Part shown: positions 1,914 to 51,457 of the stretch, piece after piece
Numbering within the stretch: position 1 is the first letter of the stretch
Layout: each line of letters begins with the position of its first letter
From: Candidatus Zambryskiibacteriota bacterium
Lineage (GTDB): Bacteria > Patescibacteriota > Minisyncoccia > Phycocordibacterales > Zambryskibacteraceae
NCBI GenBank assembly: GCA_009691335.1
Contig: SICR01000001.1
Coordinates: 1 to 52,402, forward strand
Length of the DNA: 52,402 nt
Direction of reading: 5' to 3'
Translations under genes and position numbers: made by a program
The notes under the pieces: generated by a model
The model's database searches: none
What the model was told of the DNA's origin: nothing
The model's input: only the letters and a program-made list of their open reading frames with translations

Positions 1914-3107
1914 CTATTTCAATTTAGAACGGCGGAGAAATGCTGGGACGGCAGACCAGTCATCATCGTTGTCCTCGATTGGAGAGGCAGCTGGAGTGCC
2001 CACAGGCTTTTTGATATCTATATTTTCCCTTAGAGAGCTCACATCCTTCGGAGCGGAAATAGTATTGAATATTCTGCCTTTAGACGGAGCTTCTTCATTG
2101 TTGTTTCCAAAGGTTTGGAATAAGGAAGTGGACTTGGTACCACGGAAGTTGTTATCGGGGAAGTTGCTTGCGATGACGGTAATCCTGATCTCACCTTTTT
2201 TGAGCTTGTCGTCGTGGATGGTACCGAAGATAATCTTGGCATTCGGATCAACTGATTCGGTAATAACTTTGGCGGCCTCCTGTATTTCAAACATAGCCAA
2301 GTCATCACCGCCGGCGATAGAGAAGAGTACGCCCTTGGCGCCGTTGATAGATATTTCCAGAAGTGGGGAAGAGATAGCGGCTTTGGCAGCTTCGGCGGCG
2401 CGGTTCTCTCCTGAAGCGGAGCCTATGCCCATGAGTGCCGCACCTGAGTTCTCTAATACGGAGCGGATGTCGGCGAAGTCAATATTGATAATACCCGGAG
2501 TGGTAATGAGTTCGGAGATACCCTCGACTGCTTCCTTCAAAATGTTATCGCAGATGGCGAAGGCGTTCTTGGCAGTAACATTTTTATCAACGGTCTGAAG
2601 AAGGCGATCATTGGGAATGATGATAAGAGCGTCCACTGATTGTCGGAGTTCTTCGGCCGCTGCTTCTGCAATTCGCATTCTCTGCTGGCCCTCAAAGAAG
2701 AATGGTTTGGTGACGACAGCGACGGTTAGACACCCATTCTCTTTGGCAGTGCGGGCAACTACTGGAGCTGCGCCTGAAGCTGTGCCTCCGCCAAGTCCTC
2801 CTGCGACAAATACCATATCCGCTCCCTTGATGGCTTCCTGAACTTCCTCCTTGGTTTCTTCAACCGCACGCTTGCCAAGCTCTGGGTTCATACCGGTACC
2901 GAGGCCTCTTGTGAGGTTCTTGCCGATGTGGATTTTCTTCTTGGCCAGAGAGTGGTGAAGGTCCTGCGCATCCGTATTTACAGCAATAAACTCAACTCCC
3001 TTGACCTTGGAGTTAATCATATGATTAATGGTATTTTTCCCTGAACCGCCAACCCCGATGACCTTGATACGAGCGAATGATTCTACTTCTGGTTTTATTT
3101 GTGGCAT
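1914..3107 (-). CDS. ftsZ: Cell division GTPase FtsZ
   Basis: GVGGSGKNTINHM and the tubulin signature GGLGGGTASGAAPV; 397 aa. Confidence 0.95.
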   Translation of the reverse strand: MPQIKPEVESFARIKVIGVGGSGKNTINHMINSKVKGVEFIAVNTDAQDLHHSLAKKKIHIGKNLTRGLGTGMNPELGKRAVEETKEEVQEAIKGADMVFVAGGLGGGTASGAAPVVARTAKENGCLTVAVVTKPFFFEGQQRMRIAEAAAEELRQSVDALIIIPNDRLLQTVDKNVTAKNAFAICDNILKEAVEGISELITTPGIINIDFADIRSVLENSGAALMGIGSASGENRAAEAAKAAISSPLLEISINGAKGVLFSIAGGDDLAMFEIQEAAKVITESVDPNAKIIFGTIHDDKLKKGEIRITVIASNFPDNNFRGTKSTSLFQTFGNNNEEAPSKGRIFNTISAPKDVSSLRENIDIKKPVGTPAASPIEDNDDDWSAVPAFLRRSKLK

Positions 3108-3193: not shown

Positions 3194-4396
3194 TTATGGC
3201 AAAAGTTGAGACAACCAGCGGGAAAATTTGCGTGCCAGACGCTGACCGTCTTCGGCGGAGATTGGGCCCTTTCTCGGACCCATCATATGTCCCGTGTCGT
3301 CTGAATTGAACCCCCAAAGGGAGAGTCCGCACGCAGTAGCCCAGATATTGTCGCGTATCTTATTTCTATCGGTGTTGCCGAAATGGATTTCCGCGATTTG
3401 TGCTGGTAATTCCAGTTCTTCTTCGGCAAAAGTTTTAATCCCCTGTATGCTAGCGCTTCCGCCAGTAAGTACCGCGCCTGCTGGCAGAAGTTTGTCGCGC
3501 CCAATTTTCTTCAAATGATTTTGTATGAGCTCAAAGTAGTCTCCCAGGCGGGCTCCGATGATGGCATCTAGATTTTTTTTAGAATAAGAAGAGTGGGAGA
3601 GACCGCCGAGTTTGACATTCTCAGCATCTTCTAGTGGCATCTTGAGACCTAAGGCAATGTCGTTGGTGATATCCGCCCCGCCGATGGGGAAGACTTCAAG
3701 GGATATGGGGTTATTATTTTCGAAAACTATGACAGAGAGAGTTTCTGCACCGATGTCAGCCAAGAGGCATCCGACGCGACGCTGCTTTTTAGAAATTGTG
3801 ACGAAGCTCGCGGCTATTGGTGCCGCTACGACATCAATGACTTCTATGTTTGCCTCTTCAATAGTTTTTATAACATCGGAGAGATGATGTTCTAGGCAAG
3901 TTATGAAAAGTGCTTTGACCTCGAGCTTCTGGGCCTTGAGACCGAGAGGTTCTCCCCAAGAAATCTTGCCATCTATTTTGTATTCAATGGGGATGGTATT
4001 GATAATGCGTTTGTTGATTAAGGTGGCGCGGGAGATGGATTGTTCGGCCACATCTAAGACAGCCGTAAGGTCTCTCTCGGTAATCTCGAGATCTGCTCTA
4101 GAGATAGCCACTGAACCAGTAGTAGCGAGACTTCCCAAGCCGATACCTCCAAAGGAGACATATGCCCGCTTGACTCTTACCTCGGAGATTTTCTCCGCTT
4201 TGGCCACGGCGGTGCGCACACTTGCGGCCGTTTCAGCAGTATTGGTTATGAAGCCTTTTTCTACCCCTCTCGTTTCTGCTGTGCCGGTGCCGATGATGCG
4301 TGGGGTGAAGTTGCCGTTAACATTGACGCCTTCCGCGATAATTACCTTGATTTCAAAAGTTCCTATATCAATCCCAACGATGATTTGACGCGACAT
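3194..4396 (-). CDS. ftsA: Cell division protein FtsA (actin-like ATPase)
   Basis: IVGIDIGTFEIKV phosphate-1 motif, LADIGAETL and LTGGSASIQG motifs. It lies immediately upstream of ftsZ on the same strand. Confidence 0.85.
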   Translation of the reverse strand: MSRQIIVGIDIGTFEIKVIIAEGVNVNGNFTPRIIGTGTAETRGVEKGFITNTAETAASVRTAVAKAEKISEVRVKRAYVSFGGIGLGSLATTGSVAISRADLEITERDLTAVLDVAEQSISRATLINKRIINTIPIEYKIDGKISWGEPLGLKAQKLEVKALFITCLEHHLSDVIKTIEEANIEVIDVVAAPIAASFVTISKKQRRVGCLLADIGAETLSVIVFENNNPISLEVFPIGGADITNDIALGLKMPLEDAENVKLGGLSHSSYSKKNLDAIIGARLGDYFELIQNHLKKIGRDKLLPAGAVLTGGSASIQGIKTFAEEELELPAQIAEIHFGNTDRNKIRDNIWATACGLSLWGFNSDDTGHMMGPRKGPISAEDGQRLARKFSRWLSQLLP

Positions 4397-4751: not shown

Positions 4752-5015
4752 TTATCTTCGGCGGTGAGTGAGAGAGTTCAGCTCACTTTGTTTACCGAGC
4801 TTTATAAGTTCATTGATGGCTTCCTTCTTCTTGAGGTATTCCAAGGTCTTGGACTTCTTCACATTGCCTGACTTGATACGCTCGCTGTATCTCTTGGAAC
4901 GGACACGAGGGAGGACACCTGCCGCTTGGACGCGCTTAGTAAAGCGTCGGAGGACGCTTAAATTATTTTCATTCTGGCCTTTTGTGACCTCGATATTTAC
5001 AGATGATGCTGTCAT
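4752..5015 (-). CDS. rpsU: 30S ribosomal protein S21
   Basis: LRRFTKRVQAAGVLPRVRSKRYSE matches the S21 core. The ATG at 5015 is preferred over the GTG at 5039. Confidence 0.7.
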   Translation of the reverse strand: MTASSVNIEVTKGQNENNLSVLRRFTKRVQAAGVLPRVRSKRYSERIKSGNVKKSKTLEYLKKKEAINELIKLGKQSELNSLTHRRR

Positions 5016-16259: not shown

Positions 16260-16278
16260 GTGTTCCGTGTGACGGTCG

Positions 16279-16626
16279 TCACTCGACGATCGTCACACGG
16301 ATGTACACGGGGTTCGAGTCGACGGCCCGGAACTGGATCTTCTGGACTCGCCCGTGATCGGTGTGCGGGACCAGGCCGGCGTTCCGGGTGACCGGGACGC
16401 CGGCCTGGGTCCGGAACTGGTAGGCCGTGTTCTGGTCTACCCGTTCCCACCGGATTTCAGAGGTACCACTCATGGGCACCCTGACATACTTTGTCCACTC
16501 TGACCCGGCGGTCACAATGAATGTCCTGCTGGCAGTCGCGACCGGTGCTGGGTGCGACAGACATCCGCCGGTGCAGTCCGGTGCGTACCGGTGCACTAGG
16601 CAGTAGACGATGATCGCCGCGAGCAC
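16279..16626 (-). CDS. Hypothetical membrane-anchored protein (high-GC cassette, distal ORF)
   Basis: Strong G/C bias at third codon positions in this frame. GTG start, N-terminal hydrophobic helix (LAAIIVYCLV), then ~95 aa predicted soluble. I recognise no family. Confidence 0.5.
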   Translation of the reverse strand: MLAAIIVYCLVHRYAPDCTGGCLSHPAPVATASRTFIVTAGSEWTKYVRVPMSGTSEIRWERVDQNTAYQFRTQAGVPVTRNAGLVPHTDHGRVQKIQFRAVDSNPVYIRVTIVE

Positions 16627-16641
16627 AAGGCTCGTGAAGAT

Positions 16642-16854
16642 CTACATCGCCCAGGCTACCCGTTGACGGTTGGCCATCCAGCAGGCGCTGAACCCACCTG
16701 GTGCGCCAGTGATCCGCCCAGCCGTCGTCCAGCTGTAGCGAACCGCAGCGACGATGCCCATTACGGCGAGTGCCGTCGGTATGAGCCACCAGCAGCCGTA
16801 GAGCACCGCGATGAGGACCGTCATAAGTATGACGGGGAGTGCGTATATGGCCAT
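16642..16854 (-). CDS. Hypothetical two-TM small membrane protein (high-GC cassette, proximal ORF)
   Basis: GAGGAGG lies 4 nt upstream of the ATG at 16854. Two hydrophobic helices and high GC3. The ORF ends in TAG, in frame with the next ORF. Confidence 0.5.
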   Translation of the reverse strand: MAIYALPVILMTVLIAVLYGCWWLIPTALAVMGIVAAVRYSWTTAGRITGAPGGFSACWMANRQRVAWAM

Positions 16855-16896
16855 GTGGCCTCCTCGTGACATTTTGGCTTAATTGCCCCCTTTGTC

Positions 16897-39185: not shown

Positions 39186-39210
39186 TCCCCTAGGAAGGAC
39201 CTAGGGGGAT

Positions 39211-39295
39211 GCCCGGGTGGCGGAATTGGTATACGCGCACGACTTAAAATCGTGTCCCGTAAGGGATGTGGGTTCGATGCCCACCCCGGGCACCA
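39211..39295 (+). tRNA. tRNA-Leu (anticodon TAA), CCA encoded
   Basis: Acceptor gcccggg/cccgggc, anticodon stem-loop cacga-cttaaaa-tcgtg, long variable arm. Confidence 0.85.
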
Positions 39296-39509
39296 TACAT
39301 AGGAACGGATCTGATTCCGGCAGGTTGGACTTGGCTTGTCTTAGATAAAACCAAGGATTTTGCGGGGCCCCGCGCGCTTCGCGCGAGTGGAGGGTGAGGT
39401 TCATAAAATTCAAAGCCAAAGATTTTCTGGAGGGTAGATTTTAAATACAAGGGTTCGGGGAGGTCGTGCTTTCTAGTATGTGCTTGCCCCACCCACCCGT
39501 GCGCGCACA

Positions 39510-39552
39510 AATCCCCGCCGTTTTTAGGAGATATTATAAAACGGCGGGGATT
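39510..39552. terminator. 15-bp inverted repeat (GC core ccccgccg/cggcgggg), terminator-like
   Basis: aatccccgccgtttt pairs with aaaacggcggggatt across a 13-nt loop. Confidence 0.45.
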
Positions 39553-39614
39553 GCTCCCTTATACCCTGAAAAGTCCTTATAATAAGCCCTAATTTTAGAG
39601 AACACTCATTTTGC

Positions 39615-39643
39615 TTGACAGAACTATATAGATATGCTATACT
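39615..39643 (+). promoter_or_regulatory. Near-consensus sigma-70 promoter TTGACA-17-TATACT
   Basis: TTGACA at 39615-39620 and TATACT at 39638-39643 with a 17-nt spacer, about 100 nt upstream of the first cassette ORF. Confidence 0.6.
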
Positions 39644-39650
39644 TATAACA

Positions 39651-39746
39651 GAATTCCTATTCGTATGGATAGGTCGTTCCGAAAGGAATAAGGGCGTTCG
39701 GTTCCTGCGCCAATCAGGAAGCCCGTTCATTACAAGGAGAAGTCGT
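39651..39746 (+). promoter_or_regulatory. Structured 5' leader, copy A (three hairpins plus an SD/AUG hairpin)
   Basis: P1 cctat/atagg, P2 ccgaa/ttcgg, P3 ttcctg/caggaa, and gaagtc-gtat-gacttc spanning the SD end and the AUG. Homologous to 40014-40109. Confidence 0.5.
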
Positions 39747-39929
39747 ATGACTTCCAATGACAATGTGATGCTTCGCACGGCTCAAGATGTCGAGGACCAA
39801 GCACAAAATCTCTCACGTGAGGCCATTCGCCTCCGAGAGATGGCGGACGGTATGATCTCACAAGCCACTCGCCTCCGGCAATATGCTGAGGATTTGCGCA
39901 GGCAACACTCACGTCTACGTCGTGATTAA
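39747..39929 (+). CDS. Hypothetical 60-aa charged helical protein (high-GC cassette gene A)
   Basis: AAGGAG lies 7 nt upstream of the ATG. The frame is GC3-rich and a hairpin follows the stop. I recognise no family. Confidence 0.55.
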   Translation: MTSNDNVMLRTAQDVEDQAQNLSREAIRLREMADGMISQATRLRQYAEDLRRQHSRLRRD

Positions 39930-39937
39930 CAAGTTCT

Positions 39938-39962
39938 AAGGGCGAGTTGTCTACTCGCCCTT
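39938..39962 (+). terminator. 10-bp hairpin downstream of gene A
   Basis: aagggcgagt-tgtct-actcgccctt. The U-tract is weak, so it may be a partial terminator. Confidence 0.5.
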
Positions 39963-40013
39963 CCCTCAAAGGTTTTCTCTAGTAGGAAACTTTCGAGGGA
40001 ACAACGAGTTCCC

Positions 40014-40109
40014 GCAATTCCTTCTCGTATGGGAAGGTGGCTCGCAAGGGCAACGAGGTTCTGTTTCCTACCTCGCCCAAGGGAAATGTTCATTACAAGG
40101 AGAAGTCGT
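40014..40109 (+). promoter_or_regulatory. Structured 5' leader, copy B
   Basis: P1 ccttc/gaagg, P2 ctcg/cgag, P3 tttcct/gggaaa, and the same SD/AUG hairpin as copy A. Confidence 0.5.
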
Positions 40110-40562
40110 ATGACTTCCAATGACAATCTGTCGTTCAATGCAATCGGTGGTCCGAGCAAGTTCGATCTGATGCTCTCGCTCTTCGATGGGAACAAAGAAC
40201 CCCGTCGGACGGTCGAGTTCCAGCTCGAGGGTGCGCGTCGTCCGATCACCGTCGGCATCACGATGGTCCAGCAAGAAGATGGTTCTGGCGAAAGCTGGAA
40301 CTTCCGGGGCTGGGTCAGTGGCGATGATCCCACGGACTCCATGTTCGCCCTCAACCTCCATGTCGACGGGTACTTCTCGACGAGGGGTCGAAAGGGATAC
40401 ATCACGTTCGAAGTACCGTTCCACTACGAGATGAGAGCGGGTGAGCGCCACAAGGTGATCTTGCCTGCCAACCAACTCGCAACCGAGCAGTACGTCGAAC
40501 GTCTGCGTGGAAATCTGGGTAGCGACTTGATGGACCTTATCAAGGACGCTCGAAAGATGTAG
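40110..40562 (+). CDS. Hypothetical 150-aa protein (high-GC cassette gene B)
   Basis: Same SD and same first six codons (MTSNDN) as gene A. Strong GC3 bias, followed by a canonical terminator. I recognise no family. Confidence 0.6.
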   Translation: MTSNDNLSFNAIGGPSKFDLMLSLFDGNKEPRRTVEFQLEGARRPITVGITMVQQEDGSGESWNFRGWVSGDDPTDSMFALNLHVDGYFSTRGRKGYITFEVPFHYEMRAGERHKVILPANQLATEQYVERLRGNLGSDLMDLIKDARKM

Positions 40563-40608
40563 TTCTTGAAGAGTTGAAGTAGAGTTCCCAGTCTCATGAT
40601 ACTGGAGC

Positions 40609-40643
40609 GGCGCATTTCCTTCGGGAGTGCGCCTTTTCGTTTT
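40609..40643 (+). terminator. Rho-independent terminator of the cassette
   Basis: ggcgca...tgcgcc stem with a ttcg-containing loop, followed by ttttcgtttt. Confidence 0.75.
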
Positions 40644-40868
40644 AAAATTTCCTCGCCCCATCGCTCATACCTCTCAAAAAAGTCTAACCCCCGCCAACTC
40701 TAAAAAGAATGAAAGCGATGGGGCTTCGGCTAAAGCGGGCACATTAGTGGAGCGTAGGTGGAGGTCTAAAGCTAGCAGGCGCGCGGAGCGTGCACCTTAA
40801 CCCTTCGGGCAAGAATCAGGAATTTCTGATAAAGTAAGTTCGAACGAGGTCGTACAGACCCACAGTTT

Positions 40869-40939
40869 GCGGCCATAGTTCAGTGGCAGAATGAGTGCTT
40901 CCCAAGCATTAGACGGGGTTTCGATTACCCCTGGCCGCA
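40869..40939 (+). tRNA. tRNA-Gly (anticodon CCC)
   Basis: Acceptor gcggcca/tggccgc, anticodon loop ttcccaa, T-arm ggggt-ttcgatt-acccc. It is close to the E. coli glyU sequence as I remember it. Confidence 0.85.
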
Positions 40940-40958
40940 CTTGATGTATAATAAATAT

Positions 40959-51307: not shown

Positions 51308-51457
51308 TATCTAAATAGTGGAATGACCTAAACCTTTGGCAACAGGGGCATGGTCAAAGTCCTACAAAGCAAAAAACTCCTCGTGAGGAATGCTTTGTAG
51401 GCCCTGCCGGGAAACTGGCAGTGGGTGGCAGAGCCACCACCTTGCGAGGAGCTTTTT
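51308..51457 (+). promoter_or_regulatory. Candidate structured leader with competing helices and a U-tract
   Basis: An 11-bp helix (51361-71 with 51391-401) competes with a 12-bp helix (51377-88 with 51440-51). Two small hairpins lie between them, and TTTTT is at 51453-57. Confidence 0.35.

Follow-up and report, generated by a model that had tools for sequence, protein, structure and literature searches.

A pseudoknotted leader RNA tied to one protein family of the Patescibacteria, in a tRNA-flanked cassette of a Candidatus Zambryskiibacteriota bacterium

Between two transfer RNA (tRNA) genes of a Candidatus Zambryskiibacteriota bacterium lies a GC-rich cassette of two small genes, and the locus raises the question of what this cassette encodes, how it is controlled and where it came from. 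The window, i.e. the whole stretch of DNA analysed, consists of positions 1 to 52,402 of contig SICR01000001.1 (52,402 nucleotides (nt); assembly GCA_009691335.1). An earlier note on this DNA had described a cassette of two open reading frames (ORFs) with its own promoter and terminator between two tRNAs; its coordinates and the product lengths of 60 and 150 amino acids (aa) were confirmed. Our main finding is that each gene is preceded by a copy of a pseudoknotted leader RNA, and that this leader is tied to a single protein family. We document the anatomy of the leader, its covariation, its exclusive pairing with the family, the taxonomic range of the pair and the evidence for its horizontal transfer. 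The bacterium belongs to the Patescibacteria, or candidate phyla radiation (CPR), which represent a large share of bacterial diversity. Their genomes are tiny, only a few regulators are known in them, and the majority of the lineage-specific genes lack an assigned function.

The transcribed unit starts with a promoter, followed by two leader-gene pairs:

39615-39643, plus strand: sigma-70-type promoter, TTGACA-17-TATACT with an upstream TG (11 of 12 consensus matches)
39652-39754, plus strand: leader A (covariance model, parser, minimum free energy (MFE) fold and covariation)
39747-39929, plus strand: gene A, 60 aa (ORF call)
40016-40117, plus strand: leader B, built like leader A (covariance model, repeats and parser)
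40110-40562, plus strand: gene B, 150 aa, member of a Patescibacteria-restricted family of small proteins

Within leader A, the structural elements are located as follows, all on the plus strand:

39656-39673: hairpin P1, loop GUAU
C39675:G39692: closing pair
39676-39689: P2
39693-39696/39708-39711: P3 of the pseudoknot
39702-39707/39715-39720: P4 of the pseudoknot
39734-39739: Shine-Dalgarno (SD) sequence
39739-39754: hairpin P5; the AUG (39747) is part of the loop and of the pair that closes it

The promoter sets the 5' end of the transcript at about AAUUCC (39652). No second promoter was found in the cassette, which leaves 39615-39643 as the sole promoter found for the unit, and hence genes A and B probably form one operon. 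AAUUCC is followed by the 7-base-pair P1, whose loop GUAU (containing AUG) is closed by a C-G pair, and then by a U and a nucleotide, C or G, whose pairing partner (G or C) follows an AA bulge on the far side of P2. P2 itself is variable in length and carries GNRA or UUCG loops. In the H-type pseudoknot, the 5' strand of P4 leads directly into the 3' strand of P3, and a linker with GUUC and the SD sequence comes next. The leader ends in P5, which has the form NNN-C-GUAU-G-N'N'N', so that the start codon contributes its A and U to the loop and its G to the pair that closes the stem. Leaders A and B are related RNAs of about 95 nt, identical at 42 of their last 43 nt, a block that holds the SD sequence, the ATG and six codons. 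The MFE fold of leader A recovers P1, P2, P4 and P5. The same design was found upstream of homologs of gene B in nearly every locus. A further closing helix, between 5' (G)AAU and the GUUC after P4, showed no clear covariation.

Existing annotation and the longest reading frames place the starts of both genes differently. The NCBI annotation of gene A gives 104 aa from a TTG at 39615, which is the first base of the -35 hexamer of the promoter, and the longest ORF spanning gene B (177 aa, 40029-40562) begins with the AUG displayed by the P1 loop. In both genes, the start that is conserved is the AUG close to the SD sequence (39747 in gene A, 40110 in gene B).

Covariation was assessed in two alignments. 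A rule-based parser fitted 40 leaders to the scheme; as a control, 6.9% of dinucleotide shuffles could be parsed and 0.1% reached the median score of the real leaders. In the resulting structural alignment (A3, 39 leaders), 35 of the 43 pairs showed changes on both sides, with 387 double-change cells against 107 ± 11 in shuffles, and sliding the partners by one to three columns brought pairing to about 40%. Independently, a covariance model (R1) was built from a plain MAFFT alignment. In the alignment of 61 distinct leaders made with this model, 93.6% of the cells were paired and 16 of the 17 pairs were compensatory, while the closing pair was CG in 33 leaders and GC in 23. Leader A scored 99 bits (E=4e-20) and leader B 92 bits (E=1.4e-18). 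The start codon is structurally embedded, and its embedding is conserved by covariation. Like a riboswitch, the leader is a conserved, structured 5' untranslated region (UTR) with covariation support; its conserved unpaired junction nucleotides are few (AAUU, U, AA and GUUC).

Known RNA families did not account for the leader. Against the whole window, only tRNAs and a LOOT RNA passed the gathering scores of Rfam 15, and at E<=10 the region 39250-40950 gave nothing relevant, the best match being Fibro-purF with 16.9 bits against a gathering score of 60. A limited literature search for a published CPR leader motif of this kind likewise yielded nothing relevant. The LOOT RNA (RF03000) is located at 51325-51438 on the plus strand and scored 69.7 bits against a gathering score of 46.4.

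A shorter variant of the leader occurs in AT-rich genomes. It consists of GACUGAGUUAUUCAGC-AACGUA plus a hairpin, has GUUAU in the loop of its start-codon hairpin, and again has two loops that are alike. This variant was found about 120 nt upstream of the family gene (loci L036, L038, L051, L067 and L071-L088) and is not detected by model R1.

How exclusive is the pairing of leader and gene? Model R1 found exactly two copies in the window and 62 matches in 580 kb of homolog loci, and all 62 were located directly upstream of a family gene. Because these loci had been chosen through the protein, metagenomes were also scanned with a pattern of the leader only, which returned 62 loci. The ORF behind the leader matched the family profile in 55 of these loci, and in 60 after one profile iteration. 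The remaining two ORFs were truncated, so that 60 of the 60 scorable loci carried a family gene. The single non-family ORF found behind a leader is gene A of the window, which shares its operon with gene B.

The family itself has no name in the databases. All 72 word-indexed homologs of gene B were unnamed, and a profile search of 1.84 billion representatives recovered 2,068 clusters at E<=1e-3, of which 954 remained at E<=1e-10, the family of about 2,000 clusters being counted at 50% identity. Most members are 85-125 aa long around a core of about 95 aa; gene B belongs to a subfamily with a two-helix C-terminal extension. The motifs GPSKFDLM, EDGSGESW and GYFSTxxRxG are invariant in the family alignment (A1). 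The earlier note had recognised no motif in the two cassette proteins, and Pfam, PHROGs, NCBIfam, PADLOC and PDB sequences indeed gave no match to either of them. In the AlphaFold2 (AF2) model of gene B, which has a predicted local distance difference test (pLDDT) score of 83, a strand and a helix precede a beta-sheet, to which the two C-terminal helices specific to the subfamily are added. Foldseek found nothing significant for this model: the best match in PDB had E=0.07 (CBF-beta, template modelling (TM) score about 0.4), the best match in BFVD had 0.018, and TM scores did not exceed 0.43. A ratio of nonsynonymous to synonymous substitution (dN/dS) of 0.27 was calculated between gene B and its counterpart on the metagenomic contig L001, and therefore gene B has been kept by selection. 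Judged by its sequence, gene B is a real, functional member of the family under purifying selection.

We surveyed the distribution of the family in GTDB contigs with one genome per species. Relatives were encoded by 88 stretches, of which 80 loci were retained. All 80 came from metagenome-assembled genomes (MAGs), nearly all with Patescibacteria/CPR labels, including Saccharibacteria, Paceibacteria, Uhr-, Yanofsky-, Doudna-, Peregrini- and Kaiserbacteria, among others. No relatives of gene B were found in phage and plasmid collections (tblastn) or in IMG/VR (family scan). The GC content of the family gene minus that of its flanks averaged +3.5% and ranged from -10% to +21%, so that many copies are at native composition. 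The family is thus a resident CPR family, nearly confined to the Patescibacteria and not actinobacterial. In one clade (L093, L100, L107, L110, L121, L127, L135, L140, L143, L145 and L150) synteny is conserved, with an obg GTPase, a His-rich protein of about 100 aa, the leader-gene unit, an rluD-like pseudouridine synthase and an MscS-like membrane protein. This synteny is clade-specific, and the analysis of conserved neighbours found no universal neighbour of the family.

Two further observations on the family were made. Some members are fusions of two domains in tandem that share one leader (L065 at 3579-4270, which is among the 62 loci matched by R1; P0073, P0076, P0079, P0114 and P0121). 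In 7 of 57 scanned loci (L022, L028, L029, L035, L044, L073 and L080), a tRNA gene was located within about 300 nt of the leader-gene unit; because only about 3% is estimated for a random site, the unit is seemingly enriched near tRNAs.

What does the leader do? The two hairpin loops offer a clue. Where the P5 loop deviates from GUAU, the P1 loop usually deviates likewise: GGAU accompanies GGAU in 3 of 3 cases and GCAU accompanies GCAU in the single case found, while GUUAU pairs with GUUAU in at least 8 cases, throughout the AT-rich variant. Because the loops change together and few unpaired junction nucleotides are conserved, a co-evolving protein partner is favoured over a universal small ligand. 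In the mechanism that we propose, hairpin P5 would limit translation initiation, and a single factor would recognise the matching loops of P1 and P5, positioned by the pseudoknot scaffold. This factor would most likely be the gene B protein, possibly as a dimer, which would result in autogenous translational repression. From these patterns we infer both the identity of the leader-binding factor and the direction of regulation. Together with the strict tie to one family, they make a translational operator, with one factor reading both loops and the encoded protein as the most economical candidate, the best-supported interpretation, though a tentative one to which we give somewhat less than an even chance.

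Several points weigh against this operator model. No RNA-binding fold was recognised in the gene B model. The charge of the family is near-neutral, with a median isoelectric point of 7.8 (5.6 for the protein in the window), and its signature loop EDGSGESW is acidic, both of which are atypical for RNA-binding proteins. The co-variation of the P1 and P5 loops could reflect sequence relatedness. Alignment A3 was fitted by our own parser, so that its 99% pairing holds by construction and only its covariation counts and controls are informative. Moreover, the pseudoknot and the conserved closing pair of the leader would suit a riboswitch aptamer equally well.

If the leader were a riboswitch, the P2/P3/P4 core would bind a small molecule or ion and thereby shift the SD sequence and start codon between an open and a sequestered state, and the protein would act on, bind or buffer the ligand. 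A complex, conserved pseudoknot fold with a closing pair of invariant geometry, found in the 5' UTRs of one gene family, is what one might expect of such a device. The pyrimidine-rich strands of P4 and P3 (UUCCU, CCUC) and the 5' UUCCU are complementary to the SD sequence and may form an alternative fold that sequesters it; the acidic EDGSGESW loop might, more speculatively, serve as a cation site; and the two like hairpin loops recall the guanidine-II riboswitch. However, strictly conserved unpaired nucleotides are scarce, and loops that vary in concert between lineages are unexpected with a fixed ligand. In addition, P4 is not pyrimidine-rich in many members, no association with metabolic genes points to a ligand, and Rfam gave no riboswitch match even at E<=10. 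We regard a riboswitch as the main rival, if an unlikely one.

The leader might also work without a dedicated protein or ligand, as an RNA thermometer or cold-shock-type switch, as a 5' stabiliser, or as a ribosome standby or AUG-mimic site that is read by some general CPR factor, for instance the 30S subunit or initiator tRNA. Its position at the extreme 5' end of the transcript would suit such a role, as would a start codon in a short, possibly meltable hairpin and a P1 loop that also shows AUG, retained in the GGAUG, GUUAUG and GCAUG variants. Yet thermometers and stabilisers rarely keep a pseudoknot and a covarying closing pair across phylum-level distances, and the strict restriction to one family argues for a gene-specific partner, which makes this explanation improbable. 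Strict coupling of a structured, pseudoknotted RNA to the small protein encoded immediately 3' of it is also reminiscent of type III toxin-antitoxin pairs, in which the RNA would neutralise the adjacent protein. Here, however, each gene has a single RNA unit and no tandem repeats, no terminator separates RNA and gene, and the RNA itself contains the SD sequence and start codon of the messenger RNA. Foldseek did not reveal a ToxN-like fold and PADLOC gave no match, so that a toxin-antitoxin pair appears barely plausible.

Two simpler roles for the loops were rejected. CGUAUG comes close to being self-complementary, which suggested kissing of the P1 and P5 loops, but in the GGAU and GCAU variants the central pairs are lost. 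An upstream ORF starting at the AUG of P1 shows no consistent pattern: it is in frame with gene B, meets an early stop in leader A, and has a different frame from the gene in L009, the closest homolog of the cassette on a long contig.

The only match of gene A among 5.8e9 clusters was itself (NCBI protein EXS69_00230), and it did not match the profile of the gene B family. The AF2 model of gene A is one long helix (pLDDT 94.5). The gene contains an internal 42-nt (14-aa) repeat, and its first 6 codons are a copy from gene B. Its leader is chimeric: the promoter and the 5' part of P1 resemble L001, the section from P1 to P2 resembles L014 and L048, and the 3' third matches leader B. Gene A is thus an orphan, predicted to be a helix, behind a second, chimeric copy of the leader, and is probably a recent by-product of recombination that is co-regulated with gene B.

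Where did the cassette come from? The earlier note had contrasted 58-68% GC in gene B with 30-45% in native neighbours. The deviation is real, but its size was overstated: the 60-nt lines of gene B span 52% to 70% GC, and the native reference of 23 long ORFs spans 40-49% (44.6 ± 2.2% GC, and 44 ± 4% GC at third codon positions, GC3). Gene B as a whole has 55.8% GC and 70.9% GC3, the latter about 6 standard deviations above the native genes, and only 1% of the 452-nt segments of the contig reach its GC content. The third-position bias attributed to both genes holds for gene B but not for gene A, which has 52.5% GC, an ordinary GC3 of 49% and a GC excess at first codon positions (67%).

A second, stronger GC island was found at 16270-16880, where GC content peaks at 64% over 452 nt against a background of 44%. 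It comes after a strong hairpin at about 16230 and contains small minus-strand ORFs, including a 76-aa protein with two transmembrane segments (16642-16872) and a 115-aa ORF (16279-16626). The ORFs at 16279-16626 and 16457-16789 had no match in Pfam or PHROG, and the island region had no match to phage DNA.

The remaining features of the interval are its boundaries and several elements within and around the cassette:

39211-39295, plus strand: tRNA-Leu(TAA), left boundary and probable former integration target (ARAGORN and Rfam tRNA)
39204-39485, minus strand: relic of a CPR large serine recombinase gene, comprising roughly the final 60-70 codons at its 3' end (blastn, tblastn and motif alignment)
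39510-39552, strand unassigned: inverted repeat with perfectly matching 15-nt arms, 13 nt apart (repeat search)
39939-40000, plus strand: two adjacent strong hairpins without a U-tract, between gene A and leader B (-36.2 kcal/mol, z=-4.4)
40609-40633, then a T-run (feature to 40643), plus strand: intrinsic terminator (terminator scan)
40869-40940, plus strand: tRNA-Gly(CCC), right boundary (ARAGORN and Rfam)

Just upstream of tRNA-Leu(TAA), ARAGORN and Rfam located tRNA-Leu(TAG), tRNA-Lys and tRNA-Cys. The inverted repeat at 39510-39552 separates the recombinase relic from the cassette, and the terminator scan made no call there. The hairpins at 39939-40000 are possibly a processing or stability element. 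The spacer between the terminator and tRNA-Gly (40646-40868; 220 nt, 51% GC) holds an 11-nt perfect inverted repeat (40655-40665/40714-40724) and showed no similarity to any fetched locus.

Evidence for mobility comes from contig L001. Positions 40016-40650 of the window, comprising leader, ORF and terminator, share 88% nt identity with L001 188-823. The terminator is conserved with 89% identity over 40565-40650, and the promoter of the window cassette is homologous to that of L001 (79% identity over 39612-39686). The L001 cassette is located in an AT-rich context with flanks of 42% GC. Its neighbours are an IS30-like fragment, a gene for a 93-aa product and, still intact, a large serine recombinase of 532 aa, with Resolvase, Recombinase and Zn_ribbon_recom domains (PF00239, PF07508 and PF13408). 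The recombinase ORF (1282-2880) runs into a tRNA-Ser(GCT) gene (2786-2875, minus strand). In L009, from Yanofskybacteria, the homolog has 60% GC in a contig of 38% GC and adjoins, directly downstream, a tRNA interrupted by a group I intron (L009 4700-5010, minus strand; RF00028 matched at 4774-4984 with 36.6 bits and E=3e-7, below gathering). A further GC-rich ORF of 98 aa (3524-3820, minus strand) is located upstream of the L009 homolog.

No integrase had been visible to the earlier note, but the tRNA-Leu side of the interval contains one in decayed form. Positions 39347-39442 share 81% identity with L001 2649-2734, inside the recombinase ORF (blastn), and the in-frame translation of the relic matches the L001 recombinase with E=4e-10 (tblastn). 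Its minus-strand peptide NLTLHSREARGAPQNPWFYLRQAKSNL...GIEPTS, with the motif NLTLHSREARGxPQNxWF...GIEP, aligns to the conserved C-termini of many CPR recombinase homologs. These homologs typically end in a GIEP/GFEP-type tail, which is the antisense reading of a tRNA T-arm, and the tail of the relic runs antisense into tRNA-Leu. The catalytic domains are absent from 39204-39485; because only the C-terminal 60-70 residues or so align, the copy in the window is a relic and not a gene. Database homologs of this C-terminal region (among P0197-P0280) are mostly short fragments, several annotated as partial, which suggests multi-copy elements that break assemblies.

Support for the junctions was sought in sister contigs, located via the flanking RNase R gene. 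Both cassette junctions and the identical gene spacing recur in a second contig of 51.7 kb (ENA ERZ1305449). Four other contigs with an identical RNase R gene stop about 563 nt upstream of that gene, near window position 39429 and thus within the recombinase relic, and one further contig stops in the tRNA cluster. The breaks near 39429 suggest repeated or polymorphic sequence, or strain heterogeneity, at the left junction.

The foreign-insert interpretation of the earlier note therefore gained support from the GC3 of gene B, the 88% identity to a cassette located elsewhere, and the recombinase relic at tRNA-Leu. Native composition of the genes in relatives, which the note had named as a sign against it, occurs in distant family members but not in the nearest, since those of L001 and L009 are GC-rich islets as well. 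Of the features that characterise tRNA-associated islands, an adjacent tRNA, deviant composition and an integrase remnant are present, and an att-like direct repeat was not found. The repeat search detected no att-type direct repeats flanking the insert, and the arrangement of recombinase and cassette differs between L001 and the window; both facts count against a single mobile element. The linkage of recombinase and cassette in one element is deduced from their co-occurrence in two contexts.

Might gene B instead be native and vertically inherited, with a high GC content imposed by constraints on RNA or protein? The family is stably resident in many CPR genomes, in some of them next to obg and rluD, and its genes are on average slightly GC-richer than their flanks (+3.5%). 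However, the 71% GC3 sits at synonymous sites, the identity to a differently placed cassette includes promoter and terminator, a recombinase relic adjoins, and many family members match the GC content of their host genome. A native origin is thus very unlikely. Even less can be said for the source proposed in the earlier note, an actinobacterial or actinophage cassette for defence, anti-defence or host interaction. The elevated GC content and the second GC island (64% GC at about 16.3 kb) would fit such a source, but the homologs come nearly all from CPR MAGs and none from the phage, plasmid or IMG/VR collections. A defence role found no support: PADLOC and PHROG gave no match, and one clade keeps the gene in the stable obg/rluD synteny. 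We consider this origin extremely unlikely.

We read the interval as a decayed CPR integrative element, inserted next to tRNAs, and not as actinobacterial DNA. A Patescibacteria-specific element would insert next to tRNA genes, and its decayed remains would fill the interval from tRNA-Leu to tRNA-Gly. These remnants would comprise the 3' end of the recombinase and, as cargo, one intact unit of promoter, leader A-gene A, leader B-gene B and terminator. The GC-rich copy of gene B probably derives from another CPR lineage of higher GC content. For the full explanation, i.e. a decayed CPR element carrying a member of this protein family under a translational operator leader, we see an even chance.

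Three things are new here: a leader with a pseudoknot and strong covariation, which Rfam lacks and which accompanies one protein family exclusively; the family itself, with its roughly 2,000 clusters and no database name; and evidence for transfer of the leader-gene unit among CPR lineages, carried by elements whose serine recombinases adjoin tRNAs. Chances fall just short of even that the pair constitutes an undescribed, Patescibacteria-wide ribonucleoprotein (RNP) module, in which a new-fold protein would recognise two identical start-codon-bearing loops on the pseudoknot scaffold at the 5' end of its own messenger RNA, or else a new riboswitch class. In either case, it would join the small number of cis-regulatory RNAs that are characteristic of CPR bacteria and would travel as a self-contained mobile unit; the ligand of a new riboswitch class would point to the role of the protein. 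The leader offers an experimental handle on what signal CPR cells may sense, and a sequence marker for annotating the family. Furthermore, the locus illustrates that when a CPR genome has a GC-rich islet next to a tRNA, the host organism is not necessarily its source.

The locus resembles several known systems in part. Like other tRNA-adjacent genomic islets, it combines compositionally deviant cargo at the 3' end of a tRNA with an integrase remnant. Unlike the usual islets, it involves a large serine recombinase instead of a tyrosine integrase, with an ORF that runs antisense into the tRNA, it lacks detected att repeats, and the element is reduced to about 1.5 kb. The guanidine-II (mini-ykkC) riboswitch has two hairpins with identical conserved loops, the 3' one beside the translation start. 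Here, in contrast, the loops are of the GUAU type and vary in concert, about 60 nt of P2 and pseudoknot are located between the hairpins, Rfam gives no match, and the associated gene encodes neither a transporter nor a carboxylase. The operator of thrS, with its two anticodon-arm mimics, and the leaders of the ribosomal proteins S15 and S4 share with our leader an occurrence only upstream of the gene of the regulator, here a putative one, two similar hairpins that could bind a dimer, and a pseudoknot near the ribosome-binding site. They differ in that the gene B protein is not a known RNA-binder and has a near-neutral charge, and in that our leader mimics no recognised cellular RNA and matches no Rfam leader family. 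In the single-stranded RNA phages MS2, Qbeta and PP7, the coat protein binds a hairpin at the start codon of the replicase gene. The likeness consists of a short hairpin just after the SD sequence, with the initiation codon in its loop or closing stem, on which a protein clamp is proposed to act as a repressor. The resemblance is functional only, and the gene B model lacks the coat-protein fold. Moreover, the gene is a cellular CPR gene, a single ORF proposed to regulate itself, and its operator occurs twice, P1 being the 5' mimic, and is connected to a pseudoknot scaffold.

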